From: Protoeuglena noctilucae
Taxonomy: Eukaryota
Length of the DNA: 64,000 nt
Reading direction: 5' to 3'
Assembly: GCA_958009085.1 (NCBI GenBank)
Contig: OY253676.1
Span: forward strand, 930,001-994,000
In this document: in pieces, positions 5,124 to 64,000 of the stretch
How positions within the stretch are numbered: position 1 is the first letter of the stretch
How the letters are laid out: the number at the start of each line of letters is the position of its first letter
Program-made: the position numbers and the translations under genes
Notes under the pieces: generated by a model
Database searches by the model: none
Told to the model about the DNA's origin: nothing
Seen by the model: the letters and a program-made list of their open reading frames with translations, nothing else

Positions 5124-7115
5124 CTACATCTTGCTCATGGGCGGGCTGCCGTTGTTACCCCCCTCGCCCTCCTTCGCTGACACATACGAGACGAGCACGG
5201 TGATGTCGTCGAGCTTGCCGCCCATGTAGGCGTACCCCCTCTGGAGGGCGCCGTGCATGAAGGGCGACCACGCCGTCTGGTCCATCCCCCGCCGCTGCGC
5301 CTGCTTGGCCATGACGCTCGCCAGCGCACGCGGCGCCTTGCCCCGCCGCCGCGCCTCCCCCACTAGCTCCACGATCTCGTTCGCCCAGAGGTTGTCCCAC
5401 AGCCCGTCCGAGGCGGCGATCAGCACGTCCCCCGGCCGCAGCTGCACGTGGAACTCCTGGGCCTCCTCGGGAGGGTCGCTGATGTTCTCCGATCCCAACT
5501 GAAACACAGGAGGCGGCGGAGAGGAGTCACGTTGGTTCACCCACCCAAGGGGATGCCTGGTCCCTTGCCTGTGTTCTTGGCGCTCGCCTGGAAAGGGAAG
5601 TTGAAGTCGTGCTGCTGCGGGGGCGTCGTGAAGACGATCTGGTCGTCGCGGACGACCGACACGCCCGAGTCGCCGATGTTGGCGACGTGCAGCGTGTCCC
5701 CGCATAGCATGGCCACGCACGCCGTCGAACTCCCCATCGCCCGCGTCTTCAGGTACGCCTTGCGCAGCACGCGCTTGGGGGCCGTCCCGCACGGCGCCTC
5801 CGTCCGCACCGCCTCGTGGCACCACCGCATGAGCTCGCGCGCGTACTCGGCGGGGTCCACGCCGTGCTCCGCCCAGCCCCCTACGCCGTCCGCCACGCCG
5901 AAGGCCGAACCGTCCTCGCTGATAAACCACGCGTCCTCCCCGCCCTTGTGCGCCTTGTCGGGATGCGGGAGGTTCGCCACCGCCGTCGACAGCCGCAGCA
6001 CATCCGACCGCGGGCCCCCCGCCGGGCACTCGCCGTCCCCCGCCGCATCCGGCGACGCCCGCCCCGCGCCCGACACCGGCCCCGCCGCGGCCTCCCCGCC
6101 CGCGCCCGCCATCCGGGGGCGTTCCTCCGCCACCAGCCCCATCGCGTGGCCCGCGGCGAGGGCCTCGTCCCACAGCCCGCTCTCCGGGGCCGGGGCCGGG
6201 CCGGGCCGCTCGACCGCCAAGGCGGGGAAGTCCGCTCCCCCGTCAAGTCCCAGCGCGGCCACCTCGGCCTCCGCCGTCTCGGGCAGGATGATCCCGCGCT
6301 CCCGGAACGCCTCGAGGAGCGCCCGCATGTCCTCCGGAGAGTGCTTGCGGGGGCGTGACCGCGAGCCGGTGCCCCCCGCGCACTCCTCCGCGGGCGCAGG
6401 TGGCGCCGGCACGAGGCTCTCGTCCTCCGAGAAGTGGAAGGCCCCGGAATCCAAGTGGAGGCTGCCCGCTGCCGCGCTCATCTGCAGACGCAGAGTCGTT
6501 CCCATATGACAGCGAGTCGAGGAAGTGCGATCGAGGTTCAGATGTAATGCGAACGCGTCAAGCGTCACCAGAATCGACTCCCACAGCGCATGGATCGGAG
6601 GGCCGTTCCCCAGCAGGACGTCGGGGTCAACGCGCGTGGCGTGGTGGCTGTATGGCCCGCCAGAGCTCGAGTTTGCCGGCTGAGCGCGGGTTAGGAGAGG
6701 AGCATGACGAGCGGACCATCGCTGGATCCTGCGAGCGGCGATCCGGGGCCACAGACGGTCAGCGCAGCATGAGCAAAGACAGGTACTGCACAGAGCTCGC
6801 CTCGCCCCGCACACCTGCTGGTCCCGGCGCCGAGTGAAGAGAGACCCGCGTACAGAGTCGAACGCAGTACCCAGCTGAAGGTCTGGCCGGGCGCGCTGCG
6901 AGGGAAGGGCGCGTGTTCACGTGACTGCCCAGAGCTCTGACCCTGGCCGCCCAGCGCGGTGATGGCCATACGACTCACCCGCCACGAGAGAAGATCGGCA
7001 GGCTCGACATCATGCCGGCGGAGCAGGGCTGATGGAGGCGCCGGGGACCGTGGAAGCTGCTCGCAAACGCCGCGCCAACCAGCCTGGAAAGCAACGCCTC
7101 TCGACCGACGAGCAT
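5124..7115 (-). CDS. PTC7-type PP2C protein phosphatase, probably organelle-targeted; exons upstream of 6481 uncertain
   Basis: Motifs LPHPDK..GGEDAWF, FGVADGVGGW, GSSTACV, ANIGDSG, QQHDFNFPFQ|LG, DVLIAASDGLWDN and GGKLDDITV. GC-AG intron 5587-5499. Candidate presequence MLVGREALLSRLVGAAFASSF from ATG 7115. Confidence 0.9.
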
Positions 7116-7426
7116 GCCTCGACACCGCCCGCAGAGATGTCAACGCACCCACGACAAGGTCAAGCGTGAACCTCGGGGCGACTTGGGGGGATAACACTCA
7201 CGAGCAGGGAGCGAGTTTGACAAGGAACTAAACCATGGAACGATCGACATCTGAATCACGACAGCGTCGATGATTGTCCCTATTGATCGGGGAGGCCTCT
7301 GGCACTGGGTTAATCGGCTCTTGCGCCGTTTATCGATTGCTTCATGACGTGAATCATGGCCCGACACTCGCATGTCCCTGCTGTCTGCATGGCGGAGCGC
7401 GTAGGGGGCCGCAGGGCGCAGCCATC

Positions 7427-11122: not shown

Positions 11123-12853
11123 ATGCGGGACCGGCTGTTGTCCCTCGCTGGCCGCGGGTGGGCGTGCATGGGCACGGTGGCGACGGCGACATCGGCGATG
11201 GTGCCGGGGTGCTCTTCGGCGTGCGTGACGGGGGTGGTGCGGGTGGGCCTGGGCCCCCGCGCGAACGCGGGCGTCCTGGGGAGAGCGAGGGCTACGAGCG
11301 TATCGGAGCGGTTCAGGAGCACGCTGGGATCGCGGGCGTACTCTGAGAACGCGGCGGCTCGGGACCCTCTCGAGGTACCTATCCCGCCGTGACCCCTGAT
11401 TGCCGCATCTCCATGGGTCACCGCCGCAGTGCGCTCGCGTCACTCCCGCCCATGCCACCCGCAGGCGTCCATAAGCACCCGGCACCCGCTGGTCACCGCG
11501 CTGGTGGTCTTGTTCCCCATCACGACTGCGGGGCTGGGGGTGTGGCAGCTGCAGCGGCAGGCGTGGAAGGCCCAGCTGCTCGAGTCCGTGGACAAGGCCA
11601 TCAAGGCAGATCCCATCCGTGGTACGCCGTGCTGCTCCCTTGTTCCTCCCCCGCCCCACCGGGCCCGCTGTCGCAACGCCGTGAGCTTGCCCCTCACCCT
11701 CCCTTTGCAGCCCAAGACCTGCCCGACGAGCCAGCTGAGTTCACCCGGGTTAGGTTGGCAGGGACATACAGCAACAAGGACACCGTGCTCATCGGCCCTC
11801 GACCTCGCAAGGGTGAGTGGCGCCTACGTGACGGGGATGGCGCTGGTCAGGCAAGGAAGTGGCCCAGTATGCTGGCAACCCTTCCCCACTCGTGCAGTGC
11901 AAGGGACGCCTGCGATGGGGTATTTCGCCGTGGTGCCCATGGCTTTGGAGGGGGGTGGGGTGGTCCTCGTGAACCGGGGGTGGGTGCCTGACTATTTGAC
12001 CAAGGCAAGGCGAGAGGGGTTCAGAGATGGCGGCCCAGTGCAAAGGGTGGGGACTGGGTCTCGTCTGACGTGACAGGTGCCGACGCGAGCCTCCTGTGCA
12101 TGTGCGCTTGATCCGCAGGACCCGCAGGCAGCATCGCGCTGGCAGGTGGCTGGGCCGGTGTGTGAGGAGGGCGTGGTGCGGCGCAGTGAGCGCCCGTCGT
12201 CGAGCATGGGCCCCGTCAACGACCCAGGTGACGGGCGACGCGAGGCTCCACGCCGCATGCACGGTTGATGGGGTTGCTGTGTCGCCGATGCAACCGTGGA
12301 TGGCATTGTGGCTACTGGCAGCGAGTCTTGCCTGCCACTCGCTCTTACCTGCCACTCGCTCCCCTCCACTCGCTCCATTCTGCAGCGCGCAAATCGTGGA
12401 CCTGGTTCGACGTGCCTGCCATCGCCACCCACCTGGGCCTGCCTCCCGACACGCCCCTCCTGGACGTCATCAGCCCCCACGGGGACACGCGGGACAGACC
12501 TAGCCCTCTCTCGGAGCTCAAGATGGCCACGGGGCGCCTGGGCAGCGAGCCCATATCCTACCCCGCACCCCGCAGCCCTGAGTGGTACCAGCAGCAATAC
12601 CTGATGCCTGCCGACCACCTGACGTACGGTGAGGGGCCGGGGCCGGGGTCTAGGCAGCGGCCGATGATGACCACTCGCTGCCTTTGCAACTCGTCGGTCC
12701 TTTGCTGTGAATCGATTCTCCCCGCGCCCCTGCCCGTTTGCAGCACTGACATGGTTCACTATCTCTGCCATCACCGCCGTCATGGGGCACCGCCTGCTTC
12801 GAGGGCAGAGTCCAGGGGCGCCGAGGGCTACGAAGAAGTCACCCAGTCGCTGA
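11123..12853 (+). CDS. SURF1: SURF1/Shy1 cytochrome c oxidase assembly protein (about 7 exons; start uncertain)
   Basis: Motifs GLGVWQLQR.AWK, EFTRVRLAGTY, IGPR, VLVNRGWVP, GVVR.SE, W...DVPAIA and HLTY|ALTWF; Arg/Ser-rich presequence-like N-terminus. Confidence 0.92.
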
Positions 12854-12960
12854 GAGCGGGCGAGGTGGGGAAGCAAGGTCCACACTGTGGTTTCCGCTAG
12901 AGCTGCCAGCACGCACACTATGCATCCCGCCACGCATGCCGCTGTCTGAAGCGAGATGTC

Positions 12961-16721: not shown

Positions 16722-17384
16722 GCCGCCTCGCCCTTGCGCTTGCAGCTGTGTTCCGTGTCGCGGGGCGTGCTTTCCTTTCAATCGCGCTTCCAAGGGTGAC
16801 AGGGCAGGCAGGCAGTCCTTGGACCGGCAGGAACTTCGCAGCATGGCAAGGCGGGCTTGGGGGAGGGGGGGGTCAATCGTTGTAGCCCTACGAGAGGTTC
16901 GGCAGCCCCGCGGTCGCGCCGCTTGGCTACCGTGCGCAACAGCTGAGCAATGGACAATGCCTGCCGATGGGCGGGACTCGGTCAAGGCCCGCGGACTACC
17001 ACTGCTTGCTCGATACGGCGGTGTTCACGGGGGGCACGCCCTCCCTACTGGTCGCAAGAGCGTGGGGAGGGGAAAGGGAATGCAGGCCGGCGGCGGGGGC
17101 ACAGAGGGGGGGCGGCCACAGCCAACAGGAATTGGGGAACACCACAGCAGCACCGTCCACCTCACGTGCTGCGGCAGTGCACGGTGCGCTCGTTGCAGGC
17201 CGAGGCCATAGGACTCTGCTTGCTCTGGCGACGGGGGTAGCCCCGGCGGGGTGCCTGGGCCCCCGCCTCAGGCGCCCGTGTTGTGGCGGCGCGGATGGGG
17301 CGGCCTGGTCGTGTCTAGAGAGGTGCTCGGGAACAGGGATGCCCGCGGCATGGCTGCTGGAGCGCCGGTGGACAGCCGAGGGGA

Positions 17385-17665
17385 AAGGGGAATAGGGCTG
17401 GTCAGGCAAGGAGGGGTTGGGAAATAGGGGAGGTAGGTTGGGGCACAGGGGGGTCAGGGAGTAGGGAAGCTTGGGGAATAGGGAGGGATGGGGTACAGGA
17501 GGGGCAGGGAATAGGGAAGGTAGGTAGGTTGGGGAGTAGGGAAAGTTGGGGGAGTAAGGAGGGTTGGGGTACTGGAGGGTCAGGGAATAGGGAAGGCTGG
17601 GGAAAAGGGAGGGTCCGGGTACAGGAGCATCCGGGAATCGGGATAGGAGGAAAGGGGAAAAGAGG
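17385..17665 (+). repeat. Purine/G-rich minisatellite, about 15 degenerate 16-17 nt units (consensus RGGGAATAGGGAGGGTY)
   Basis: Units such as agggagtagggaagctt / ggggaatagggagggat / ggggtacaggaggggc / agggaatagggaagg are read directly; the + strand is strongly C-poor. It lies between two convergent 3' ends. Confidence 0.85.
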
Positions 17666-26760: not shown

Positions 26761-29815
<3,055 letters not shown>

Positions 29816-30427: not shown

Positions 30428-31767
30428 TCAAAGGGCTTCGAAGTATGCCTTGGACTTGTCGGGGTCCGCCACCATCGTCTGCAGATGCGCGGACAGGGTG
30501 CACTCACCCCGTCCCACGCTGTTTCCTCCCATGGAAAGACCCCGGGCGAAGGGCAAATTTTCTGAGCCCCAGCGGTGCACCACGTCCCCCCGTCCTCCCC
30601 CAATGAATCAGGTCTCACCTTGGAACCCGGCTTCCAGTTGGCCGGGCACACCTCCCCGTTCTCGTCTGTGAACTGGAAGGCCTTGATCAGCCGCAGCACC
30701 TCGTCGACCGACCGGCCCACGGGAAAGTCGTTGACGGTGACGTGGCGGAGGATGCCCTTGTCCGAGATGATGAAGAGGCCGCGGAAGGCGCGGCCCGGCT
30801 CCTCCCCATCGTCCTCGCTGCGCCGTGGAGGAGGGTGGGCGACCCCCTTTGGGCAAACAATCCGGCATACCGCACTGCCTGCCCGCGCGATTGCCAGCCC
30901 GCCAGTCCAACTCTCCCATCCCTGCCGTCGCCACCTCACCACAGGACCCCAAAGTCGCGCGTGACCTTCTTCGTCAGGTCCCCCAGCAGCGGGAAGGTGC
31001 ACCCGCCGAGACCGCCCTTGTTGCGCGGGACGTTCGCCCAGGCGTGGTGGGAGTGCACGCTGTCGACCGAGACGCCCACCACCTGGGGCGGCAACCTCGC
31101 CCAGGCATCGTCCCCCGTCTGGCTTGCCCGACAACGCTGCGGCGAAATGGCCGACCGACTCTGCACTTGCCTGCGTGTTGAGGTCCTTGAACTCCTGGAT
31201 CCGGTCGGAGAACGTGTAAATCTCCGTTGGGCACACAAACGTCCAGTCCCCGGGGTAGAAGAGGAGCACGACGTACTGCGCGGAAGCGAGAATGAGCAGG
31301 ACCACTTAGGCATGGTATGCGAGTGACTGATCCGGGCAGAGAGGCGGCGCGGACACGGGACGCGGATGGCGGGCATCCCACGTGCGCATGTTCCGTTACT
31401 CCGTCGCGGCCGTGCACCGAATGGCACTGTAAAGATGAACAGCCGGCGTGGAGCGTCCGATACGCGGCATTGACATGCAAATGCACGCGACGGATCTCTG
31501 CCGCGGGACAAAAGCGGGGCCCTTGCCAAGGCGCAGGACCCAGCCGCCGCCACGCCGCCCCATCGACCCTTCCAACGGCGTCACGTGGTAACTTTCATTT
31601 TGCAGCGTCGCCGATTCCACATCCTAGGCCCGACGAACCGCTGGGCGATGCGCTTCCCCGCCACCCACCTGGCCCTTGAGGCTGTCCGATGCGAGCTCCG
31701 TCACTTGCCCGTCGACCAGGGCCGGCGCATTGAAAGCCGGGATGGGCTTCCCGACGACCGCGACCAT
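30428..31767 (-). CDS. PRX: Typical 2-Cys peroxiredoxin (Prx1/AhpC family), 5 exons
   Basis: Motifs FYPGDWTFVCPTEI (peroxidatic Cys), GGLG, RGLFII, VGRSVDE, GEVCPANW (resolving Cys) and SKAYF. GC-AG intron 31170-31083. An upstream in-frame extension is possible. Confidence 0.96.
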
Positions 31768-37803: not shown

Positions 37804-37836
37804 GGCTGTCGTCACCTTACGGTCCTGAGAGGAGCC

Positions 37837-39497: not shown

Positions 39498-42400
39498 ATG
39501 CAGCCCATCGCTGTCGTGGAGGCGCCCACGGCGTCCCGGGCATGGACGATCCGCGGCCAGCGCCGGGGCGGGCGGTCCGCGCGATCGCTGGCCGGCGTGG
39601 TCGTGAGGGCTTCTCAGGCCTCGGGGTGGGGGAAGAGCGGTTCGGCGGAGGCGACTGTGGTGAAGGCGAAGGTGAGCTTCCGTGGCTGCGCAGAGCCAGG
39701 AGTTTCTCGCCCGGCTGCACGCCGTCTTCGGGTGGCCCGGACCCACAATCCGGTGCCGAGAGGTCATGCCTTGCATGTCCTGCCCTCGTGCCCCTTTGCG
39801 CACCGTCCATCGCGCGAGGCCGGCCGCCTTCGCTGCGGGCCAAGGGAGGCCAGGGCCCGAGCGCGAGCGCGGGGGCCTCCCTTCGTGCTGCCGGGACCGA
39901 TGTCGATTTGGCTGATGTGCTCCGCGCGTGCAAGGTCCCTCCCCGGCCCCGCCGGGAGCGAGATGCCGGGAGTTCGTTCTTGTGGACGCCGCCGCGGCTG
40001 GCTGTTGCTCCACGCGACCCTGCAACGTCGGCAACCGCATCCGTATTCATGTTCCTGCAGGGCACGAAGCGCTCGGCGGGCGCGAAGGCGACGTCGCGCG
40101 GCTCGCTCCAGGTCGTGGCTGCGGGTGAGGGCGCGGCCCAGCGCCGCATCTGCTCGTCTCTCGCGCCGCCTGATCCCATCCCTCGACTCTGCTGCATGTC
40201 GACCGCGCGTTTTGCTGCCGCGTGACCGCCGGGTGCCTTGTTTCGCGGCGCTACCTCGCCCCAGCGCGTGAACATCATCGGCTTTCTCCGCCCACGCCGC
40301 GCGACGGCCGGGCCGCGCGTGTCCGTGTGCGAGCGGCGTTGACTGTTTCCCGTCGCGTGATCACCAAGCGCGTGGTAAGGACGTTCTCATGCGTCCGGGC
40401 CGCCCCTGCTCCCGCAGCACGCAAGGTGGCGATGGAGAAGTACCGCAACATCGGCATCATGGCGCACATCGACGCCGGCAAGACGACGACGACTGAGCGC
40501 ATCCTCTTCTACACGGGCAAGGCAAGTCGAGCGCGTGGGCGGCACACCCTGGGACGTCGCTCGATGCAAGGGCGGGGCTCTGACCCCGCAGCTCCGCCTG
40601 CGTCGCAGTCCTACAAGATCGGCGAGGTGCACGAGGGTGCCGCGACGATGGACTGGATGGTGCAGGAGCAGGAGCGCGGCATCACCATCACGTCGGCCGC
40701 CACGACGGCCTCGTGGAAGGACCACCGCATCAACATCATCGACACGCCCGGCCACGTGGACTTCACCCTTGAGGTCGAGCGTTCCCTGCGTGTCCTCGAC
40801 GGTGCCGTGGCCCTCTTCGACGCCGTGTCGGGCGTGGAGCCCCAGTCCGAGACGGGTGCGTGCCGAGTCGGGCACGTGGCGCCGCGATCAACGGGAGGAA
40901 GGGGGTTGCAGAGTCGCGCAAGACGACGAAGTTTCCGCCGCTTCTCCCCGCAGTGTGGCGCCAGGCGGACCGCTACAAGGTCCCCCGCCTGTGCTTCGTG
41001 AACAAGATGGACCGCCTGGGTGCCGACTACGAGAACTGCATCAAGATGATCAAGACCAACCTTGGCGCGACGCCGCTCCCCATCCAGCTGCCCGTGGGTT
41101 CCGAGGACCAGCTGAAGGGCGTGGTGGACCTGGTGCGCATGAAGGCGCTGGTGTGGAACTCGGAGGACCTGGGGGCGTCGTGGAACGAGGTGGAGATCCC
41201 CGACGACCTGAAGGAGAAGGCGGAGGAGTGGCGCGCGCAGATGATCGAGCTGGCCGTGGAGCAGGACGACGCGGCGCTCGAGGCGTACCTGGAGGGCAAC
41301 GAGCCGGACGAGGCCACCCTCAAGGCGCTCATCCGCAAGGGCACGCTCAACTTCAGCTTCTTCCCCGTGCTGTGCGGCTCGGCGTTCAAGAACAAGGGCG
41401 TGCAGCCCCTCCTCGACGCCGTGGTGGACTACCTCCCGGCCCCCAACGACGTGGCGGCCATCCGCGGCGTGGCAGTGGACGATGCCGAGAAGGAGATGAA
41501 GCGGCTGTCGAGCGACGAGGAGCCCTTCTCGGCCCTCGCCTTCAAGATCATGTCGGACCCCTTCGTCGGCACCCTCACCTTCTGCCGGTGAGCGCCGCTG
41601 CGAGGGCCGCCGCTGCGGGGCTGGCGGGGTCGCTGAGGTGGTGGGTGCCATGGCAAGGCGTCGGTGCTTGCCTCTCCCCACAGCATCTACTCGGGCACGC
41701 TGGACGCGGGTTCCTACGTGCTCAACTCGACCAAGGGGAAGAAGGAGCGCGTGGGCCGCATGGTGGAGATGCACGCCAACTCGCGCGAGGACATCAAGGA
41801 GGCCGTGGCGGGTGACATCATTGCCATCGCGGGTCTCAAGGTGGGAAGCCGACAGCGGATGGCGCGCGCAGGGAAGCTGCGGGGCCGGGTCAGCGACGGT
41901 CTTCAACTCGTCTCCTCTTGCCACAGGACGTGAACACGGGCGACACGCTCTGTGACGACAAGGCGCCCGTCATCCTTGAGCGCATGGACTTCCCCGAGCC
42001 TGTCATCAAGATCGCCGTGGAGCCCAAGAGCAAGGCGGACCTGCAGAAGCTGTCCGAGGGCCTCATCAAGCTGGCGCAGGAGGACCCCTCCTTCCGCTTC
42101 AGCCGCGACGAGGAGACGAACCAGACGACGATCGAGGGCATGGGCGAGCTCCACCTCGAGATCATCGTCGACCGCCTCAGGCGAGTCTGAGGGGGGCAGG
42201 CACACTGACATGGGGTTGACAAGCGCCTGGCGCTTTCAGGCCGTGGCGTGACCCCCGCCCACCTCTCTCTCCCCCAGGCGCGAGTTCAACGTCGAGTGCA
42301 CCACGGGCGCCCCCCAGGTCAACTACCGCGAGTCCATCTCCAAGCAGTCGGACATCCGCTACGTGCACAAGAAGCAGTCGGGCGGGTCGGGGCAGTTCGC

Positions 42401-44199: not shown

Positions 44200-47100
44200 G
44201 GCGCCTGGCTTGGAGGGCCAGGGCAGGCCCAGCGAGGGAGTGCAGCCGTCGATGAGCACACGTCAGCTCTTCTTCGCGACCCGGACGCCAACGGGGGGTG
44301 ACTCGACCCTGGACCCCCCACGAAGACGTGAGAGCTGCGGGGACTCACTGTGCTGTCCTGGCTGACCAACCACCCGAATTTGCATCGGCAGGGGGTCGTC
44401 GCTAGGCCACTCACGTGACACAAGCGTCCCTCCCGCAGTTGCATGGCTCTCCGGGGGGTGGCACTGCCTCGCCATGTGCACGCTGGCGGCCTTCCTGACC
44501 AGCAGCGACGCAGGATCGGGAGGTAAGTGCCGCCCCCTCCTTAAGAGGACTGTGCCAGTGATGGTTTAACGTTGCAGGGGCCCCGTTCATGCGAAGATCT
44601 GCCCCGTTGCTGCCCCTGCGCCCTCAGCCGCCCGCCCCACCAGTGCCGCCCCAGCTGCCGCGTGGGCGGCCCTGCCGTCCGCCCTGGTCCTGACCGTCAC
44701 GGCTGCCCAGCGCTACCTCCACCTGAAGTGGCACGTCGATTTTGAGGACCGGTGGATGCTCCTGGACGCCGTGGACGTCCTGGCCGTGGCGGCCTTCATC
44801 GGTGAGTGGCGCCCATCGACGATTTGGCGAGGCAGCGTACCGGTATGCATCGACTACCGCATTGGATGTGGGGTCAGACACGCAGCGCTGGATGGCTTTT
44901 CGCAAGTTCGACGACGTTAGGGTGCCCGTGCCCTGTCCCTCGCTCCCAGTGTCGATGCTGGCGCCGGCAGACGTCCTGACTCCCGAGGGCGACTGGGTGG
45001 CGGGTGAGCTCGTCATCCACCTTGCAGGTGCATTGAGGCAGAGAGCGCGCTTGCCGTGCACCCTGGCACACCTCGTCGTCGCCTCTGCCGCAGACGGGGC
45101 ATGGGTGCGCCATCGCGCGGCATGGCCCGCCGTCGTCACGTCGCTCGGCTTTGCGCCCCTCCTCGTGGCCGCCACCTCCCTGCACAGGCGAGGACGCGGT
45201 CGCCTCTAAGCAGCAGGCTCGTATCTCCAGCGGCCCCCTGGGTGACATGCGAGACCCTCCCTTGCATCCCTGACCCCAGGTTCCTCTGCTGGCGTGCCGG
45301 GGCCATGAACACCCGCACCGCACACAGCACCACGGGTGAGCTTTGCAGTGCCAATGACATCACATCTTGGCACATGGACGGTGTGCGAATGTTGTTCCCC
45401 GCTTCCTCGCCACTGCAGCCGTCCGCACCCGCCGCGCTGTCCTCTTCGCCAACTGCGCCGTGGCCCTCCTGGCAGCCCTCACCGGCGCCCTCGCCTCCTC
45501 CTCCCTTTGGCTCGGCAACCACGCACAGTCCACGGCCCAGATGGAGACGGCAGCCGGTGCCCTTACGGCCGCCCTCGCCGCCACCTGCGGGGGCATGGCC
45601 AGCGACTCCGCAGCGGTGAGGACCTGGCTCCGCTCGCTTCCATTCGCTCGCTCGTTCCCCGCGATGCGCTCTCTTATCGACACGCCCACCTCCCCCAGGC
45701 CTGTGCGTCTGCGATCGCCTCCGCGAGCACGTCGGCGCCCGTCTGCCTCGAGGCCCTGGGCTTTGCGGTCGACGGCGCGACCCTCTACCGCGCCCCGGGA
45801 CTGTCGGCGGCGGAGTCGGCGACCCTCTCGGACGCGCTGGCGGGGCTGCTGGCGGGGGGGCAGGCGTGGTACGGCCGGGCGTGGGTGGCGGTGCGTGGCT
45901 CGGGAGGGTCCCACTCCGGCGTGGGGGTGTTCGCGGACGCGTGCTTCGGGCAGGAGGCGGGCGCGCTGGTGCTGGCCAAGGTCTTGGTCTCTGCCGCGGC
46001 CGTCGCGTGCATGCTCGCCCTCACCTGGTCCCTGTACCTCCGCGCCATCACCCCCCTCCTCCGCGCCCTGGGCGGGGTCATGTCCTGTGCCGCCTTCCTC
46101 ACCGACCAGGGCCTCGTCCTTACCCACGAAACCGACGCAGTGGACCTGGAGCCCAGCGTGGAGAGGGTCGTGCGCGCCATGCGGCTCCTCATCCGCGCTT
46201 CCTTCCGAGGGCGCAACGTCGTCAAGAAGGCGAGGCAGCGGGAGTGTGCCTGCGATGCGCCGCTGGCAGCTTCCTTGCCGTTGCTGTGGCGACCAAGCGA
46301 GAGTGGGATTCAGAAAGGGAGTAAGAGTGGCTTCATGCGTGCCCTCCTGCAGCTCCTGGCCGAGGCCGTCAACGCCACCGAGCACGACAGCGGCGTGCTG
46401 CAGATCTACGGCCTGGATTTGCGGGCCTGGGTCAAGCAGCGGCGGCAGTCGGGGTGGGTCGCCAAGCCCACGGGGCTGCTGCCGGGGAGGTGAGGGGAAG
46501 CGGGGTCTGCGTTTCGCGCGCTTCCTGCCTCGTGCATCCCAGTCCCTGCCACAACCTCTTATCCAACACCCCGCCTCGTTTCAGGGCGGACGAGGCCCCC
46601 CCTCCCTCGGGGCGCATGGAGGCCGCCGAGGGCATCACGGGTGCAGTGGCCGCCATGCCGGAAGCCAGCATGAGGCGGCCGTCCAAGCAGCAGAGCGAGG
46701 TGGGGGGCACGGTGGGGGGCGCGCTTTGAAGCGGGGCAGACTGCGCGCCATGCATGCCGCGCAGTTCTCAGCAACTGCCGTGCCGCCGCCCCGGTCTCTC
46801 TGGCCCACTTTACTGTGTCCCTGCCCGCCCCCAGATGCCCGGCTGGTTCCCTCTCATGAAGCGCAAGCCCGCCCAGTCGGGGGGCCTGTCCGCCGACTGC
46901 CGCGTGCCCTCCGCGCAGGGTGAGGGGCACGCGAGGCCCTGCTCGTGTACAAAAGGGTCTGGGCTGGCGCATGCAGATGCACATATGAAGGTGCCATGCT
47001 ACGCGCTCCTCCCCTGCCCCCAGGCCCCGCCGGCCTCCCCCCCTGCGTGTCCGTTCCCGACGTCCCCCCCTGGCTCCCCCACCTGGGCACCTTCGACTGG

Positions 47101-51298: not shown

Positions 51299-54200
51299 TC
51301 ACGCCACTGCCACGACAGCCGACGTCTGCTCCCCCTCGACCGTCGCGGCTGCATCCCCGCCGGGCGCCTGCCCGCCACCGGCCGCCACGACGAAGGCACT
51401 CGGGTCGATGGTCACCGACTGCAACGGGAGTGCAGTGGGACGGGTCACCTCAGCCAGCTCACCCGCACTCTCGTCGCTCCACAATCGGGCTCGTCACACA
51501 CACCCCTCACGACACCCCGGACGCTCACCTTGGTCATGTTGTGGGTCTTGTAGATGCCCACCAGGCGGTCGGCCAGCTCGAACATGTTGTTGCGGAGGGA
51601 GATGATGATGAACTGGGCGTCGCGGGTGCGGTCCTTGATGTAGTGGCCCACGATGGAGACGTTGCTGCGGGAGAAGAAGCAGGACAGCAGCGGCGGTGGG
51701 GGCGGATGGGTGGGCAACACGATTAATCATCTCGGTGCTTTACTCTAACTCTTCTGTCGATGCCACTGCGGCGCACCACGCGCGCTGTGCGCCCCGTCCA
51801 CCTCCCCCCGCACACTTGAGTGCCCCCAACCCCCCTCCCCATTGAGCATGGCACGCCTCACCGGAAGTCGAGGGCGGCGTCGATCTCGTCCATGACGTAG
51901 AGGGGCGTGGGGCGGTAGTGGTGGAGCGCGAAGACGAGCGCGAGGGACGAGAGGGTCTTCTCCCCCCCCGACAGATTCGCGATGTTCTTCCACGACTTGC
52001 GGGGGGGCCGCACCGAGAAGACCACCCCCTCCGAGAAGGGGTACAGGGAGTCCACCAGCTCCAGCTCAGCGTCGCCGCCGAGCGTGATCATCTGATACAT
52101 CTCCTTCAGCTTCAGGGCGATGACTGGGGGGGGGGTGGGGTGGTTGTGGGGTGGGGTGTCAGGCATGCCGTGCGCCCCACGCACATTCTGCCTGTCATGT
52201 CATGACGCGGTGCCGTCGCTGGCTGCTCCCTCACCGTTGAACCCGGCCATGAACTCGTCCAGTCGCTGCTTGCGCAGGGCCTCGTGCTTCCCCCGCGCCT
52301 CGTCCCGCCGCGCAGTGCACGCCTCCAGCTCCGCGGCACGGTCAGCGTACTCTGCCGCACGCTCCCTGCAGACAGCGAGACAGGCAGACACGTTGAGAGA
52401 AGACGTCAAGGCACAGCAACCCAAGCATGGCGCGTGTGAGGACACGGCGCAGTAGGTCAGTGCCTGCCCTGCTAAGCCCATGGCTCACAACAAAAAGTCC
52501 CTGGCCCCGCATGCCCCCTCACCGGTACCGCTTGATGACGCTGACGTCCACGTCCATGTCCGCCACCGCCGCCTGCAGCATGGCCAGCTCCCCCTGGCAC
52601 CGCTGCAGGGAGTCGGGGTACCCCCCGGGGGCGATGGCCGCCAGCTCCTCCTCGGTCAGGGGCCCGGGGGCAGCCGCGCCGTCGCCGTCCGCCGCGGACT
52701 CGCGCTTGCGCTGCGGGTGAGAGGCGAGGCGGTGATCATTTTAAGTAGTAGTGCAAACACTGAAAGAGGTCAGGATCGGGCCGACGGTGGTGACAGAGCC
52801 CGGCCAGTGAGATAGAGAAGGGTCTCTGTGGAACCACGCCTGTGCATAGAATGACTCAGGCATGCGCCACCATGCAACACCCTCCCATCTCCCACCTCCT
52901 CGGCCCTCTTCACCGCCTCCTTGGCCCAGTACTTGGCGCTCTTGCGCTCCTCCCCCGCCGCCTTCTCCAGGGCCTCCCTCTTGCGGCGCAGCTCCCCCAG
53001 GGCACGGCGCGCGTCGGTCATCAGCCGGTCCCGCTCCTCGTACGCCTCCCGCACCTCGTCCAGGGCCTGGCGCTTCGAGGCGAGCAGGGCCTCCACCTGA
53101 GGGGAGAGCGAGGGGGCGTGGGGGATCGGTGCGGGCGACGGGGGGTCGAGCGGTGGGTGTGGAACACAGTGGGGTTGGCTGATGCGAGTAGTGCAGGTTG
53201 CAGGGTGGGACTGTTGCGGAGCCCCTGTTGCTGTCCATGGCACTTTCACTACGACCACCACCACCCCCTCTATTCACCTCCTGGTGCTTCTTCATCACCA
53301 CCAGCGCCTCGTCCTCCAGCTCCCGCAGTGCCTTGCGCTTGCCCTCCACCGCCTCGGCCACCTCCCCCGCCTCCTTCTCCGCAGCAGCCACCTCCGCCTC
53401 GCACTTGGCCACCGCCTTGCGCAGGGACTGCGGCCAAGCACGCGACACAAGGTGCTATCGTCATCCTCCCTTGATCATACACAGCCATGCCGCCCCTGAC
53501 ACCCCCCCCACCCCCCAGCCACTTGCCTGCGCCTGCACTCGCTTGCGCACGGCCTCGGCGCGCATCCCCTCCACGTCCCCCTCCATGCGGGCGATGAGGT
53601 CCTTCTGCCGGCGCAGGGGCGCACCCCCCGCGTCGTCCACCTCCTTGCGCAGGCGCTCCACCTCGGCGCGCAGGCCCCCGCACTCGGACTCCAGCGACGC
53701 GATCGCCTCCTCGCCCCGCGCCATCTCCTCCACCAGCTCCGCCAGCCGCCGGGAGGGGGCCTGCGCCCCGGCCGCCGCCTCCCGCAGCGACGCCACCTGG
53801 GCCCTCAGGTCCGCGGCCTTGGCGGACTCGGCCTCAGCCTCCATGGCCGCCTGGGGAGATGGGGAGGAGGGTGAGGTTAGGGCAAGCCGGTGAGAGATGG
53901 GGTGACGGAGTGTCATGTGGCCCGCGGTGCGATGGGGAGGAGAGGGAGTGGAGAGGGGTGGGTCACCCGGTGTGCGGCACACGGCACACAGAGCGTCGAG
54001 AGTCGCACACATGCTTCCGCCCCTGCTTCCCCCACCCAGGTCCTCGCCTTGGGTGCCGCCCTGCGGACGTCCCTGAGCTCCGCCTGCGCCGCCCTCAGTG
54101 CCTCCTTGGCCGTGGCTGTCTCTGCCCGGGCCTCCTCCAGCGCCGCCTCTAGCTCCGACACCTCGCGGCCCACCGCCTCCACCTCACGCTGCGAACGGGG

Positions 54201-57200
54201 CAGAAGAGGCGCCGGCGTCACGCGCTCGAGCGCTGACCCTAGTCCAGGCCACCCGCGCCCACACTGCAACGCCCTACGCTGCACCTCTGACACGTTTCCC
54301 TCTCATGCCAACTCACTCGTTGGCACTTATATCGGAGCATTGACACCCACACCCCGTCCCGTCTCACCTCGAGGCCCTCGGCGCCGTCGTCCACGGGCGG
54401 CCGCGTGCCCACCCGCATGCGACCAGACCTGGGGGGACCCTGACCGCCGCCCGAGACGGCACCCGACTCGACGATCAGCTCCCCCGCCAGCGTCACCACG
54501 CGGCGGAAGCGGCGGTCCGGGCCTGGGAGGGTCAGGGGGTGTGCGTGTGTCAGCACTGGCACCACCCGTCACATGAGGTGGGAGTGAGTTCATCATGCCG
54601 CGCATGACTCGCCCCATGCACTGTTAAGACCATATCTGCACCACACGTGTGTCTTGCGCCGCCACCCGTGCCCCCGCCGCCCGTGCCCCCTGCCCCCCCT
54701 CACCGTAGGCGATACGGGTCGCCTGGTCGAGGTCGTCCGCCACGACCGTGTCGCGCATGGCGAAGAAGAACGCCACGCGCAGTCGGTCGTCGGCCACGCG
54801 GACGAGGTCGAAGAGGCGGGGGACGCCCTCCGGGGTGCCCCCCTGGGCCCCCCTGCGCATGTCGGCCTCCAGGTGCCGCTGCTTGTCGAGGATCAGGAAG
54901 GTCGCCACGCCCAGGCGCTGGGAACGCAGCAGCTCCACGCACGCCTGGGCGCTCTGGGCGTCCTCCACCACCACGAAGTCCAACGCGGCACACGCCTGGG
55001 GGCGACCACGGGGGTTAGATGTAAGCAGAGGCGTCGCACACCAGTTGGGCAGTCGAGGTGTCAGCGAGGGCGGCGGGGGTGGAGCAGTGGAGACGCGGTG
55101 TGTCACTGTGAAACCTTAATTGGCCACGACCCGTTGCAGCAGTCCATGCTCGCAGCGCCGCCACTCGCCTGGGACGCGGCCACGTCGTACTTGGGGTCGA
55201 TGGTGCCCAGGTCGCCCAGGCGGCCGTAGATGCCGGGGATGGCGCGGCGACGCTTGGCCTCGTCCAGGGCTCGGAACACGCGCCCCCGACCGCCGCCGTC
55301 CGCCAGGGCCGCGCGGCGCTCCTCGAGGCGGGCGCGTGCGTCCGACAGCGATGCGGAGAGCTGGGAAGGAGCAGGGGCAGTGTGGTGGGACACGGCAGAG
55401 CTGGGTACAACTTAACCAGCCACGCAGCACCGCGTTGAACACAGTGCCAACCATCCTGCCCATCCCTCGATCTCACGCCCGCTCCGCTCGCCTGCTCCTC
55501 CCGCCCGGCCGCCTCGGCCGCCATCCGCTCCGCGCGCGCCACGTCCTTGGCCGCCTCGGCCTCCGCCCCCCGCAGCCGCTCGGCCTTCGCGCGCCTCTCC
55601 CGCGCCGCCCCCTCCGCCGCAGCGATGGCCTCCTCTGCCTCTGCCACCTTGGCCGCCGCCTCCTCGGCACGCCCCGTCAGCAGCCGGTGCTCGGAGGCCG
55701 CCACCTCGAACTGGGAGCGGGCCTGGGGTACGGGGGGGAGGAGCGAGAAGTCAGATGGAGGGGTGAGTGGCTAGAGAGAGTGGGGGTATGATGGGTCAAA
55801 GCCAAGTGCGTCAGGCCAGGGGTGAGGAGCCATGCACGCGATGCCGCTTGGCATCAACCCCAGCACCTCCCCTGCCAGCCGCGCCCCCTTGCCTGCGTTA
55901 GCTTCTCCTCCCACGGCGCCAGTGCCTTTCTGGCCCCCTGCAGCGCCACCGTGCGGTGCTCCACGTCCTCGCGCACCTCCTCCCACATCAGCGCCACCTT
56001 GGCACGCTCGCGCTCCAGCTGCGGGGGAGGACGAGAGAGGCGATGAACAGGTCAGACAGCACCGTATGGTGGCGACTAGAGTGTCGCATGGCGTATCCTG
56101 CTCTATGACCACGCCTGCACCCTGACGCCACCCCCTGGGTACGTCTCAGCCCCTCGCCTGCTTCTCCGTCTTGTCCGCCCGCGCCTCCAGCTCCGGCCCC
56201 GCGGCCTCCGCCTCCTCGGCGCCGTCCGTCGCCTCCCGCAGCCGCGTGCGTGCCTTGGCCGCCTTGCCCTCGGCCGTCTTGCCCTTGGCCTTCAGGTGCT
56301 TGAGGTCCTCCTTGAGGCCCAGGTCACGCGCCTCGAAGGCCCGGAAGTCCGCGTCCACCTTCTCCATCTCCGACTCGATCGCCCGGTGCTCCTTCTCGAT
56401 GGCCTTGAAGGTGCGCTCGGCCTCGGCGTGCTCCGACGCCAGCGCCTGGCCCTGGGACTCCTCCTCCTGTGAAGGGAGGAGGGTGGGGGGTGAGTAGATG
56501 CAGGGATCGACTCTCAAGAGTGATGCAGCGACGGATGCAGGGGGCTGATATGGTGAACCGACTCAGGGGTGGATGCAGGGGCCGACATGGGCTCTCCGTT
56601 GGCGACATGCAGGCTCCACTGGGCCGTGACCCTCTCAGCCCCTCCCAGCCCCTCACCTTCTCGCATCGCTCCACCTCCCGGATCTTGTCCTCGATGGCCG
56701 CCACGTTCCCCTGCGCCTTGGCCAGGCTCAGCTGCGCCTCGGCACACGCCCAGTACCGGATCTCGCGCTCCTTGGCCAGGTACGCCTCGGCCTCCTGCCG
56801 GGCGCCCTCCAGCGCCGCCACCTCCGTCTCCGCGACCTTGACGCGCTGCGGGGAGGGGGCGGCCGCTCTGCTGACGCCGGCAAAGAGCACCGGCGATGGC
56901 AACGGTCGGCCTGGGCGCGCCATCCCAACCACCGACCCCGGGCCGAGTCCGGCTTAGCGTTACGCTGCGAGTGCGGGCCATATCATCGCTCAGCATTCCT
57001 CCCTCAGCCCCCCTTGCCTGCAGGACTCCCTGCCTCTCCTCATTGAGCTTTTCCAGGGCCTCGCACATCTCCACCAGTGGCTCCACGAAGCGGGACGTGC
57101 CGATGATGTCCTCCAAATACTCGAGGAGGCCTGCGAGGGCAGTTGACGCAGCATGTAAGGGCAGGGCCCAGCACGCACTGCGCTGAGCCATGCACGTAGA

Positions 57201-58478: not shown

Positions 58479-59002
58479 CGTCGCTCCGCTGCAGGCCCGC
58501 GCTCAAGGGCGCATAGCACGGCGACCCTCGCAAGGCGTCGCGAAGCAAGGCGTCGCCTACCGCGTGGCGACCCGCAATCTCCCAGGCACGAGCTCGGATA
58601 TGCCTGATGCGGCCCTGCGCAGCGCGAGGACGAGCCTGAGGCCCGTTCGTGCAAGTTAGCAGTGTCGCCCCGTGCCCGACGCTCTGGCACGGATAAGAAG
58701 CGCTGCCCGGAAGACCCCGAGCTCATGACTGCACCCCGCGAGCTGCGCTGGGCGCTGCTGGGGCATCCGTTACGCGGGGCGGGGCATTTCTTGCCTGACA
58801 CGCCTTTTGAAATCCCAGCCCTCTTGGCGCCTCCAGAGCCTTTCCTGAACAAACGGGTATTTGGCGCCTCGGCAGTTGCGCACGGTCCGTGAACGTGGCG
58901 GGCTTTGGTGCTCGGGCTGCTCGCACCTCTTGGCACAAGCGCAGCTACATCTGACATCGACCGCCGCGGCCGCGGGGGAAGGGCAGCCCCATCGCGGTAG
59001 CT

Positions 59003-62000
59003 ATGGACTTTGACGATGGCATTCTCTCCCCCGCGAGCACCCCCGGCGGCCGCTCCGCGAGGGCGCACGACCCCGCCAACTCGTTCGTCGGCCTCAGCCG
59101 AGAGGTGAGCCCCTGCAGCCCTGCCGCCGCATCCTTCGGGCGGGAAGGCGGCTGGCATCGGAGGCTCGATCCTCAGACGGTGCCTTGCGCGTCCTGCACG
59201 ACGGCATCCATGCTTGTTGATGGCATCTTCGTGGCTCGCAGGAGGCGCTCACCCCGCCCCTCAGCGCCGTTGCGAGCTCCTCGGTGGGCGGCACGGGTGA
59301 GAGTGGCTGCAGCAGCACGAGATTGCTCCATCACCGATTGTGCGCCTTTCGCAATGACCCAATGCATGGATTCCACGCAGCCATGACGCGTGCTCGACCG
59401 GCGCTGGACAGCCAGCACATGGGTCTCACCCGTCGTCGCACCGAGGTGAAATGAAGGGTTGTTGACGATGCCAGGCTGTTTGGGTGTCACATCCAGAGCA
59501 CAGCCAAGCTGCGCTCACTGCAGCCCCAGCAAGCCGCTGATGAAAGGTTGCCCCAGTCCGTGGCTTTGCAGTTTATGAGCGCCAAGTCTGCGGATGTACC
59601 ATCGGAAGTCTCCAGCCGTGGAGCGAGGGGAGCGGAGGCAGCGGGGCACCTGGCGAGGCGAGTGAACTCATGCGCGTTTCCCCCGTAACCGTGGGACATG
59701 GTCAGGCAGGGACTGAATCAATGCCCATGACGAAGAAAGGTGGTCAATACGTGCAACTTCTTGTCGCCAAGTGCTTCCCCTCCCAGTCCCTGCAGTGCGG
59801 AGGACCTGATGCGTGACCTGCACGACACCAAGGCCACGGCCCAGGAGGAGATGGACAAGATGAGAGACGTGCTGCAGCGCATAGAGGTGGGCGCGACACA
59901 TGGGGCGTTGCTGGACGCAAGCAGATGGTCGTGGCCCTGTCTTTTTCATGCGTGCAAGTCAACTGTCTGCTTCATTTCTGTCGCAGCTCATGGAGCAGCT
60001 GTCAAGCGAGCTGCAGCACTCGCTCGGCGCAGGGGACGGCCCTCCCTCTGCTCACCAGCCACGCCCACATGCAGCGCAAGCCCCGGCCTCCGCGCCCAAG
60101 GTACCACCCGTAGATTGCAAGCTCCTGATGCGCCGCGTGCCGCCTCATCGATCAGGGACGTCCCTCCCGCCCTCCCGCAGTCGCTGCATGCGCTGGCGTA
60201 CGGCCCCCTGCCTCTGTCGACCAGCCCCTCTGCGGACAGCGGACTCCCAGACCTGGGGGCCACACCGCGGGGCGCGCCACGGCCCGTCACAGACGCGGGC
60301 TCCAGCAGCCGACGCCGCAGTGACCGTGCTGCAGGTCGCCCCCGCGTCCCTGCCCGCCGCGCTCCCTTCGGGTCGTCCACCGACGGCACCGGGGACGGCA
60401 CGGGGGCCGGCACGGGCTCGAGCGACCGGGCGAGCGTGGCGCGGGAGCTGCGGGCCATCCGTGAGGCCCTCAAGGAGCAGCGGGAGATGCACCGGGGGAT
60501 GCGGGACGAGATGCGGGAGGAGCGCATCAGGGGCGTGGCGCAGGCGAGGCGTGCGGCACCAGCACTGGGCAGGGTGGCACAGCTGGGACGGAGTGCAGTG
60601 TCTCACTGACGATGGTCCACCCCGCGCAGGCCATGGAGCGCCAGCTGGCGGCCCTGCAGCAGCAGCTGGCCGCGGTGGCCGCGACCCCGCACCTCCAGGC
60701 AGCCGCCGCGCACCTCCGCTTCTCCCAAAGCCCCTCCCCGCTCCCCTCGCTGCCCCCGGACCCACGCATGCACGCCACCGCCACGACACCCCGCGCCGCA
60801 GCAGCTCTGCGCCCCGAGGGGTCCCTGAACGCAGACGTAGTCGCCGTGAGCTTCGTGGACGACCTCCACGAGGGTCCGCAGGGACGCACCGCACCAGCGC
60901 CTGCACATGTGCAGGGGCCGCAGCAGCCCCAGGCATCCCGCTCCCCGATGCGTGGTGGTCCACGAGGGCGGGTCATTCCCGCGCGACCCTCCGCGAGCCC
61001 CGCACAGGGTCCAGCACCGCACCAGGCCGCCCCCGCCACCCGCTTGGCACCTCGCCACGCCGCCCCCGCACCTATGGAGGTGTCCCAGTCATCCATGGAT
61101 GTGCTGGACGAGGTGGTGGACCGCCTGGTGACGGGCCTCGTGGAAGGGGAGGGCGAGGGGGAGGCAGACTACGAGCCCGTGCCGGACCTCAGCGACATTG
61201 CCGCGCCAGGTGAGACATGAGGGAGGGCACAGCTGTTACCCAAAGCAAGTGCATGTAGTTGCTGCGCAGTGTTGCTCTGCGTACCTGCCGCAACTCCCCT
61301 GCACTGTCCCACCTCCCCAGTCACGCCCGCGCGGCCACCCTACGGCCCCCCCACGGACCCCGCGCCCGGGCACTTCGGGCCCAGGACGCCCGCCGCCCAG
61401 CGCGGCACGCTGCGGCACGCTGTGGCTGCGCGCATGGGAGCCTCTAGCACGCATGGGGGTGGTGCGGAAGCCCACAACGTGGGCAATGGCACCGGTCGCT
61501 CGGCAGCTGCCTGGGGTGCCAGTTCTACACCCAGGGAGGGTGGCGTGCAGGGGCAGCGGACCCCCGACATGCGTGCAGGGATGGCGGCGGCATCGGTTCC
61601 ACGAACTCCGTCCCCTTCTCGGCGCCTGGCAGACCCGGCCGCCCAGCACCCGCGCCCCTCGCCGCGCCAGTCGTCGCCCCGCCCCTTCGCCGGGTCGTCC
61701 CCTCCCCGCGCGTGGCTGGCGGAGCTGGCGGTGCGTGGCGCGGAGGGCGCGCGGGAGCTGTCGCAGCTGCGTGAGCTGGTGTGGACGCAGCGGCAGCGTG
61801 GCCAGCTGCAGCCCCGCACGATGAGCCACGTGGCGGCGCGGGTGGAGGACGTGGCCTTCGTCGTGGAGGGGGTCATCCGGGAGCTGGGCCGCGTGTGGGG
61901 CGACGTGATGCCCGCGGCGGAGGTGGCGGAGGCCTCAGCACAGGCGGCGAGGGCGGCGGCGGAGGCGGTGAGGGAGGTGAGGGAGGACGTGCTGCCAGGG

Positions 62001-64000
62001 CTGGTGGAGGGGCTGGGGGACCTGGGGCGGCGCGTGGGGGAGGTCGAGGGCGCGTCGCAGGAGGCGAGGGCGGCGGGGGACGCGGCAGCGAGGGCAGAGA
62101 GGGGTGCGCGCGAGGCGGCGGAGAGGGCGGGGGAGGCGGAGAGGGGCGCGCGGGAGGGAGTGGAGCGCGTGGGGGCGGGGCTGCGTGCCTTGGAGGAGCG
62201 GGCGGAGCGGGAGGGGCGCGCGACGGGGGAGCGGCTGGAGAGGGTGGAGAGGGAGGGGCGGGAGGTGCGGGGGCGCCTGGCTGCGGTGGAGGGGCGGGCG
62301 GGGAAGGCGGTGGAGGCGGCGGACGAGGCGCGGGAGGTTGCAGGGCGGGCGGAGGCTGCGGGGGAGCGTGCGAGGGTGGCGGCAGAACGCGCAAGGGAAG
62401 AGGTGGGGCGTGCAAGAGAGGAAGCGGGGCGTGCGAGGGAGGCGGGGGAGAAGGCGGCGTCGGTGGGGAAGCGCGCCTGCGAGGAGGCGGGGGAGGCGCG
62501 GGAGTGGGCGAGGGAGGCGCTGGGGATGCGGGGGGACCTGGAGGCACGCATCGCGGCCAGCGAGGAGGCGAGTGGTGGCGTGGCGTGGTGTGGGAGATGC
62601 ACGGGCGGGCAACGCAGATGCGCCTTTCATGGAGTCTTTGGACCCAGCTCTGTTCGCCACTCTAGTTACGACATCAACCGCTCCCTTACCCTGACCTCCC
62701 CAGGCCCTGGTGCACCGCTGCTGTGGCTTGGAGTCGCAGATCACCGACCTGGGCCGTGAGGTGCGGGACGCCCGGGAGGCCGCGCGGTCGGACCTGATGA
62801 CCCACGCTGCCGAGGCGAGGGCGGAGGCGCGGAGGGGGCGGGAGGCGGCGGCGGCAGACCTGGCAAGGGCAGCGGGGGCGTGGCGGGAGGAGTGGGGGGA
62901 GAGCCGGAGGGGTGAGAGAGGCGCTGGCAACAGGAACCGCCGTATGCGTTGCACGTCTTGTGAGAGCGCGCAGCACGTGCGACGGCGCGTGCCTGGCTTG
63001 CCTTGTGCAACGCCTTGCCACCCCCCGCCTCCCCAGCTCTGGCGGCTGACATGGCCCGCGCCCATGCCGAGGCAGGGGACCTCTTGCTCGCGGAGCTGGA
63101 GCGCCACCGGGAGGGAACAGCAGCTGCATTAGCTGAGGCATCGCGGCGGCAGCAGGAGGCGGAGGGGCGGGCGACGCGGCTGGGGGAGAGCCTGGAGGCT
63201 GCGTGGGGGGAGATGCGTGTGCTGGGGAGGCAGGCGAGTGGGAGAGGGTGGCGGTGCGGAGTCATCGTCGTTGCGGGGTGACATGGACCAGATTGACCAG
63301 GGATCGTGGGGTTGCCTTGCAGGTGCTGGGCATGGACGGGCCATTGAAGGAGGCGGGGCGTGCGGTGGCGTTGCATGCCCAGGCCCTGGCGCGGCTGGAG
63401 GAGGACGCCAAGGCAGCGAGGGTCGAAGCGGCAGCAGCCGCGGAGCGGTCGGCGAGGGCGGCGGAGGCGGCAGAGGCGGCCGTGGGTGAGTGGCGCATGT
63501 GTCTCACTGCCTGCATCCCTGTGCGGTTTGCGCCAGACCAGGCATGCGGTGCTAGTCTCCTCCACACACCATTCTCCCACCAACAGCAGCACTCCTCACC
63601 CCCATGTAATCCCCCCCAGAGGCCACGGACCGCCACGCCCAGCAGGCGTCGATCGTGTCAGAGGTCATGGAGGCCTTCGAGCGAGCCCTGGCCGAGTCGC
63701 GTGCCCGGGAGGTCGAGCGCGATGCGGCGGCTGTGCAGCTGCGGGAGGACGTGGACCGCAAGCTGAGGGCCGCGAGGGTGCCCAGGGAGGAGGCCATGCG
63801 CGCCGTGGGGGCCGTGCAGGCGAGGGGGTGTTGGTGTTATGGAGACGCGTGAGGAGTAGAGCAGTCAGTGTGACACCAGATGATTGGATGGAGCTTGGCA
63901 CCAGCATGTTTGTAATGGACTGCAATCAGTTACTGTACTCTGTTCTTACCCCAGGAGGTGGTCACGGCTCAGTCGGAGATGGACGCCCGCCTCCACGCCC
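59003..64000 (+). CDS. Large uncharacterised coiled-coil protein, multi-exon, runs off the right edge
   Basis: ATG 59003 MDFDDGILSPASTPGG..|gtgagc. Exons with heptad E/A/R-rich helices (DLHDTKATAQEEMDKMRDVLQRIE; ELSQLRELVW...AREAAERAGEAERG) alternate with Pro/Ser-rich exons, with consistent splice phases. No family recognised. Confidence 0.75.

Follow-up and report, generated by a model that had tools for sequence, protein, structure and literature searches.

GC-AG introns, probably of the ordinary U2 type, make up an unusually large share of introns in a 64-kb window of a GC-rich marine green alga

How common can introns that begin with GC instead of GT become, and what does the rest of such a 5' splice site look like? 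The question is raised by a 64,000-nucleotide stretch of Protoeuglena noctilucae DNA (contig OY253676.1, positions 930,001 to 994,000; referred to here as the window, with positions counted from its first letter), in which an initial annotation had listed 18 firm GC-AG introns and one further possible GC donor. We consider it likely that these are ordinary U2-type GC-AG introns, which account for an unusual 15-35% or so of the introns in the window. The host, a marine green alga, is very rich in both GC and introns. The window has a G+C content of ~67% overall (61-73% per 4 kb) and its genes are eukaryotic and intron-dense. Pfam identifies among them an SMC hinge, elongation factor G (EF-G) domains IV and C, the NGN and KOW domains of SPT5, a 2-Cys peroxiredoxin (Prx), a PP2C phosphatase, a PDEase_I domain and SURF1; an Rfam scan of the 64-kb window matched no family. 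The top named protein matches to the SMC4 hinge are from Chara, Parachlorella and Micractinium (64-69% identity), and the full-length EF-G is 80% identical to that of Pedinophyceae sp. YPF-701, its nearest named relative, compared with 71-74% for Chlorella-clade proteins. These green-algal matches led us to reject Emiliania, which GC content and marine provenance might have suggested as the source. For a 10-kb stretch of the window, 14-47% of the sampled words are present in marine metatranscriptomes from several studies.

The donor motif was examined at each annotated site and across the window as a whole. AGGCRAG is present on the annotated strand at all 19 positions (the 18 firm sites and the possible SURF1 donor at 12005), so that the AG/GCRAG donor, where the slash marks the exon-intron boundary, stands as first described. 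Counting both strands, the window contains 47 copies of AGGCRAG compared with 25.3 +/- 4.6 in dinucleotide-preserving shuffles, none of 100 of which reaches 47, and 33 copies of AGGTRAG compared with 10.6 +/- 3.4. The excess is ~22 for each motif, which suggests that real AG/GC and AG/GT donors are about equal in number. Because roughly half of the AGGCRAG copies are background, however, the motif alone is weak proof and gene-model evidence is required for each claimed donor.

Transcripts provide such evidence for three sites. The spliced model of the chloroplast-type EF-G gene, obtained with all 16 donor dinucleotides allowed, matches the transcript-derived protein P0121 in all but one residue (773 of 774). 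P0121 is intronless, because its 774 amino acids sit on a JGI contig of 2480 nt; the genomic locus is longer, at 3669 nt. Two of the nine EF-G introns are GC-AG, at 40522..40608 (forward strand, AAG/GCAAGT, phase 0) and 42181..42277 (forward strand, CAG/GCGAGT, phase 2), both within the match to P0121. The model scores 3811 with GC donors and 3763 when only GT donors are permitted, a loss of 48. The third site is in the 5' part of the PDE gene, where metatranscriptome contigs from runs X1 and X2 join 45184 to 45277. This joint has five possible placements, and only the intron 45188..45279 (forward strand, CAG/GCGAGG) has canonical ends (GC..AG). The RNA joints used here and below are from among the joints listed, 15 of 42; three joints that bridge long distances (10719, 6061 and 2279 nt, each with a shorter side of 21 letters) were set aside as assembly artefacts. 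Removal from mature mRNA is seen directly for 40522, 42181 and 45188, and for the remaining GC-AG introns we infer it from homology or coding signal.

The homologue evidence is most extensive for SMC4. Using our own protein-to-genome aligner, in which GT and GC donors are weighted equally, the SMC4 model from eight homologues contains 19 introns, seven of which are GC-AG and are each picked by six to eight of the eight. All seven are on the reverse strand. Those at 56846..57017 (CAG/GCAAGG), 56019..56157 (CAG/GCGAGG), 55723..55892 (CAG/GCAAGG) and 54996..55168 (CAG/GCGAGT) are chosen by all eight homologues, those at 55361..55491 (CAG/GCGAGC) and 53428..53526 (CAG/GCAAGT) by seven, and a newly added intron at 53851..54047 (AAG/GCGAGG), which joins the six already claimed, by six. 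When GC donors are forbidden, the SMC4 models lose 144-177 score units and their junctions become poor and inconsistent.

For SPT5, also on the reverse strand, three homologues were available, which cannot be aligned reliably in the low-complexity acidic N terminus and the C-terminal repeats. All three support the annotated intron at 35608..35700 (AAG/GCAAGC) and two newly added ones, at 33991..34076 (CAG/GCGAGG) and at 35879..35966 (CTG/GCGAGT). At this last junction, which has an exonic TG, the GC donor yields a conserved CK dipeptide and the GT alternative yields WR. Two more additions, at 36212..36297 (CAG/GCGAGC, with its acceptor at 36212 or 36200) and 35010..35106 (CAG/GCGAGG), are supported by two of the three homologues together with the gene finder described below, and the gene finder points to a candidate in the acidic N-terminal region at 36833..36926 (AAG/GCGAGG). 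No SPT5 transcripts were found in the metagenome contig scan.

Solved structures bear on two further introns, both on the reverse strand. The exons that flank the 2-Cys peroxiredoxin intron at 31083..31170 (CAG/GCAAGT) are contiguous in solved Prx chains; in 6j13_A they correspond to residues 39-73 and then 75-120, the second segment starting at exon residue 2. In the PP2C-type phosphatase gene, the intron at 5499..5587 (CAG/GCGAGC) is supported by the residue numbering of 6ae9_A, in which the upstream exon ends at 137 and residue 11 of the downstream exon is 148, placing residue 1 at 138. As judged from this numbering, the junction would be gapless, provided that there is no indel in the unaligned first ten residues of the downstream exon. 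Transcript, homologue or solved-structure data therefore back 12 of the 18 firm sites independently (40522, 42181, 45188, the six annotated SMC4 sites, 35700, 31170 and 5587), confirming that GC-AG introns are very frequent in this DNA. Five GC donors (54047, 36297, 35966, 35106 and 34076) lie beyond those first listed. The exonic AG that had been ascribed to the 18 listed sites is present at all of them and is lacking at one of the additions, 35966 (TG/GCGAGT).

Base composition offers another means of recognizing exons. GC3 is 0.95 in the EF-G and SMC4 coding sequences (GC2 is merely 0.42-0.45), and introns have a GC of 0.66-0.70, with C at 0.34-0.35 and T at 0.18-0.19, giving a C/(C+T) of ~0.65 in intron interiors. 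We observed that the codon bias in coding regions (for example, 39498-43166 and 51419-58448) suffices to locate exons and their frames by composition alone. The gene finder, a codon-bias Viterbi procedure, exploits this difference in composition between coding sequence and introns; its codon table was taken from the EF-G and SMC4 models and its splice matrices from all 38 evidence-based introns. These comprise nine from EF-G, 16 from SMC4 (three ambiguous ones having been dropped) and 13 RNA joints. The gene finder recovers 37 of the 38, most of which are also training data, and picks all 18 firm sites, each of which beats its local GT and GC alternatives by 8.6 nats or more. The whole-window score falls from 2558 to 2190 under a GT-only regime. 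When training of the splice matrices is restricted to the 28 GT introns, the gene finder still recovers 17 of the 18 firm sites, the sole miss being the RNA-proven 45188.

The gene finder is the sole support for six firm sites (36926, 46230, 60544, 62568, 63234 and 63820); each of these ranks first locally, exceeding the best GT by no less than 8.6 nats, and all are recovered by the GT-only-trained matrices. The candidate in the PDE gene, at 46230..46352 (forward strand, AAG/GCGAGG), ranks first of 124 local alternatives and lies 16.7 nats above the best GT. Four candidates are in the coiled-coil gene on the forward strand, at 60544..60629 (CAG/GCGAGG), 62568..62703 (GAG/GCGAGT), 63234..63322 (CAG/GCGAGT) and 63820..63954 (CAG/GCGAGG); read-through at 63820 scores -91.8. 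A search of a representative library with the coiled-coil exon returned one fragment (99%) that falls within the exon and one relative at 41%, P0245, the alignment of which uses the acceptor 62703 of the second candidate and fixes the acceptor only, the donor being the choice of the gene finder. No transcripts of the coiled-coil gene were found in the metagenome contig scan. The gene finder also proposes a possible GC-AG intron with an exonic TG at 29188-29313 (reverse strand, CTG/GCAAGT) in the gene downstream of Prx. The candidate SURF1 donor consists of two overlapping AGGCRAG copies at 12003..12014 on the forward strand, with Pfam matches upstream (~11513-11808); no Pfam match downstream fixes the junction at 12005, and the gene finder does not choose this donor.

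What fraction of the introns do these sites represent? Among the evidence-based introns, 10 of 38 are GC-AG. By source, GC-AG introns account for 2 of 9 in EF-G, 7 of 19 in SMC4 and 1 of the 13 placed RNA joints (among the joints listed), and the low count in the RNA joints indicates that the share differs between genes. When the penalty on GC is varied from 0 to 3.3 nats, the gene finder assigns GC donors to 25-41 of 102-115 predicted introns and to 20-22 of 60-65 high-confidence ones. The AGGCRAG excess of ~22 agrees with the 20 AG/GCRAG donors among 22 high-confidence predicted GC donors. Dividing the 23 tabulated GC-AG introns by the 140-150 introns of the initial annotation gives ~16%. 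Our best guess is that roughly 15-35% of the introns in the window are GC-AG, with about 1 in 4 the likeliest value. The initial estimate of about 1 in 8 was too low (10 of 38; 20-22 of 60-65). The baseline of ~1% with which it was compared holds for land plants, which average 1.2% (PMC6310983); GC-rich algae, as data given in PMC3033335 indicate, are already known exceptions.

The GC donors differ from the GT donors in their surroundings. Among high-confidence donors, an exonic AG precedes 20 of 22 GC sites and 18 of 43 GT sites (p=0.00014), and in the evidence-based set the figures are 10 of 10 and 10 of 28 (p=0.0005). Seven of 22 GC donors but none of 43 GT donors have an A at +3 (p=0.0002), the +3 position of GC donors being mostly G (15 of 22). 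The 22 GC donor hexamers are GCGAGG (8), GCAAGT (4), GCGAGT (4), GCGAGC (3), GCAAGG (2) and GCAAGC (1). In both of the GC donors with exonic TG, 35966 and 29313, the intronic RAGT is complete. Outside +2, the GC donors (AG/GCRAG or TG/GCGAGT) are nearly perfectly complementary to the canonical U1 5' end, ACUUACCUG. Such compensation, in which stronger flanking pairing accompanies the C at +2, is the classical pattern for U2-type GC-AG introns; Burset in 2000 and Thanaraj and Clark in 2001 are reported to have found the rest of the donor closer to the consensus in such introns of animals and plants. The introns of the window resemble them in having an AG/GCAAGT-like donor, a normal pyrimidine tract and an AG acceptor, but differ in that their frequency is some 15-30 times higher and +3 is mostly G. 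In the 10 evidence-based GC introns the acceptors are rich in C and T, with CAG as their last letters. Median length is 98 nt for GC introns and 114 nt for GT introns, and the mean acceptor scores are 3.76 and 3.84, respectively.

The GC donors are also restricted in phase: 19 of 22 are phase 0, compared with 19 of 43 GT donors (p=0.0013). The AG dinucleotide has a frequency of 0.20 at codon positions 2-3 and of 0.013 and 0.005 at the other two. Phase-1 introns carry an exonic AG in 1 of 13 cases, and no GC donor was seen among these 13. GC donors are nearly confined to phase 0 because the codon bias leaves codon positions 2-3 as practically the sole place for an exonic AG.

U12-type introns have the donor consensus /RTATCCTT and a branch site like TCCTTAAC. 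This class was considered and rejected on the donor sequences, as the 22 high-confidence GC donors are all GCRAGN and an ATCC-type hexamer is absent from them. The corresponding U12-type elements are quoted as ATATCC and CCTTAAC in PMC3033335.

How might so many GC donors have arisen? Strong GC pressure, whether from GC-biased mutation or from gene conversion, would turn the T at donor +2 into C, and the change would persist only in donors that pair with U1 at every other position. In such fully pairing donors, +2 would then be nearly neutral, with C:T expected at ~65:35. Among full-consensus donors (AG/GYRAG), C:T at +2 is 20:15, not significantly different from the intron value of ~0.65 (p=0.38), and outside this class there are 2 GC and 28 GT donors. 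A more specific version, in which +2 evolves essentially neutrally under full U1 pairing and codon bias, by deciding which introns are eligible, keeps the GC-AG class to phase 0, is a tentative proposal that we regard as possible though rather doubtful.

The initial annotation had offered GT-to-GC drift tolerated under strong U1 pairing alongside a relaxed or modified recognition of 5' splice sites. The exonic AG, the A at +3 and the C:T data favor the former. An altered 5' splice-site machinery (a U1 variant, U1C, PRP8 or a base modification) would accept GC like GT in any context. It would account for a share far above the 1.2% plant average (PMC6310983), and RNA modification or U1 snRNP proteins were suggested for Aureococcus and Micromonas pusilla by Iwata and Gotoh (2011, BMC Genomics 12:45, PMC3033335). 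However, the GC donors of the window are more constrained than the GT donors, and the phase-1 introns, which are poor in exonic AG, contain none. In addition, the U1 5' end is given as canonical in Aureococcus and both Micromonas strains in the same paper, whose authors call the origin of their GC-AG introns an enigma (PMC3033335). We consider altered machinery improbable, and GC-biased drift is favored over it because the full-consensus C:T at +2 is close to the neutral composition of introns.

There is a similarly small chance that the GC-AG introns are a distinct, weakly spliced class that serves regulation by intron retention, its abundance being selected and not the result of drift. A high GC-AG share accompanies frequent intron retention in Emiliania huxleyi (PMC4028052), and contigs from run X4 cover several GC introns of the window in unspliced form. 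The X4 contigs also lack the listed GT-AG joints, however, so GC introns are not singled out. Moreover, GC and GT introns are alike in length and acceptor strength, the full-consensus C:T ratio matches neutral composition, and the affected genes are unrelated housekeeping genes. That some listed GC donors are modelling errors, with a nearby GT or read-through used instead and a much lower true share, is suggested by the ~25 chance AGGCRAG copies expected in the window, the six sites without RNA or homology support and the unspliced X4 contigs over five sites, but is very improbable given the 12 independently supported sites, the losses of GT-only models (48 for EF-G, 144-177 for SMC4 and, for the gene finder, the drop from 2558 to 2190) and the recovery of 17 of 18 sites by matrices trained on GT introns only.

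Several points weigh against the preferred reading, that of ordinary GC-AG introns raised to a high share by drift under compensation. Just 1 of the 13 placed RNA joints is GC-AG, and the joints listed make up 15 of 42. The gene finder on which 6 of the 18 sites and most of the denominator depend is our own, fuses adjacent genes and misses some (for example, SURF1). The near-neutrality at +2 is based on 35 sites, and a single 64-kb window cannot yield a genome-wide rate. Finally, five of the claimed GC introns (55168, 55491, 56157, 62568 and 63234) are still present in X4 contigs. Because none of the listed GT-AG joints is found in X4 either, we treat it as DNA or pre-mRNA-like and hence as uninformative; this absence suggests that the library contains DNA carry-over or abundant pre-mRNA.

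Two observations on the contigs themselves may be recorded here. Within 44001-64000, the X4 contigs follow the genomic sequence without a break through introns (as at 55113-55543 and 62306-62940). The X1 and X2 RNA contigs depart from the window sequence at 63412, 45765 and 56205, and four 30-mers from such loose contig ends were found nowhere in the window. These ends could reflect chimeric assemblies, paralogues or strain differences.

One part of the window, at about 17000-28000, is atypical. It contains an uninterrupted ORF of 1207 amino acids (22214-25837, forward strand) within a stretch in which the strong GC3 periodicity seen in other genes is missing and the G+C is lower (0.61 at 24-28 kb). 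The ORF has no Pfam match, and the sole hints from a protein atlas are weak ones to WD40/beta-propeller proteins (score 0.94, with 167 features shared). An intronless gene of unusual codon usage is one possibility, a foreign or mobile insertion another. A G/A-rich tandem array with periods of 17, 50 and 76 is located at 17457-17643 in a non-coding-looking stretch.

Abundant GC-AG introns have already been published for GC-rich algae, and the alga of this window adds another case. In the figures given in PMC3033335, the GC-AG share is tied to G+C content: 39.6% in Aureococcus (69.5% GC), 22.2% in Micromonas pusilla (65.9% GC) and 7.7% in Chlorella sp. The window is like these algae in its ~67% GC and in having about a quarter GC-AG introns, and in this one 64-kb window both a G+C above ~64% and a share of several to tens of percent, the features of GC-rich algae with elevated GC-AG, were found. 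Unlike Micromonas and Chlorella as described there, the present alga is far more intron-dense and its EF-G is closest to that of a pedinophyte. The cause is an enigma in PMC3033335, whereas here the context dependence, the phase restriction and the near-neutral C:T point to drift under compensation.

Comparable shares are known outside the green algae. In Emiliania huxleyi, 56% of 241 curated junctions (about 56-60%) are reported as GC-AG with a canonical acceptor (Feldmesser et al. 2014, PMC4028052); in that study the shift is put down to GC content, and gene predictors had mis-called GT donors. Like the present alga, Emiliania is a GC-rich (65%), intron-rich marine alga, but it is a haptophyte and not a green alga, and its GC-AG share is about twice as high (PMC4028052). 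Pelagophytes combine an elevated share with high GC, to which a predicted ~14-17% GC-AG was put down, a low-GC relative having 0.32% (bioRxiv 10.1101/2024.10.30.620910). They differ in being stramenopiles with less than one intron per gene, and the figures for them are predicted ones (10.1101/2024.10.30.620910). For pedinophytes, we found no published report of GC-AG abundance in the literature on algae and green algae, supplements excluded. The genome of YPF701 is described as 28 Mb in size and 70% GC, with the strongest codon bias among the Viridiplantae compared there; the word 'splice' is absent from this preprint (10.1101/2021.10.04.463119).

These findings bear on how such genomes are read and on how 5' splice sites evolve. 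Predictors limited to GT donors mis-model about a quarter of the introns here, and annotation of this lineage must therefore allow GC donors. If near-neutral evolution of +2 under full U1 pairing held genome-wide, at ~25-35% GC-AG, no higher share would be known from the green lineage, and among intron-dense genomes Emiliania alone would exceed it. In that case the U1-pairing threshold would have been titrated naturally in this alga, and the enigma that Iwata and Gotoh raised in 2011 would be resolved. Many GC-AG introns in an intron-dense genome would provide enough sites to test a buffered pressure of mutation or biased conversion against a changed spliceosome, and the link between intron phase and codon bias is a simple, checkable prediction of such buffered pressure.

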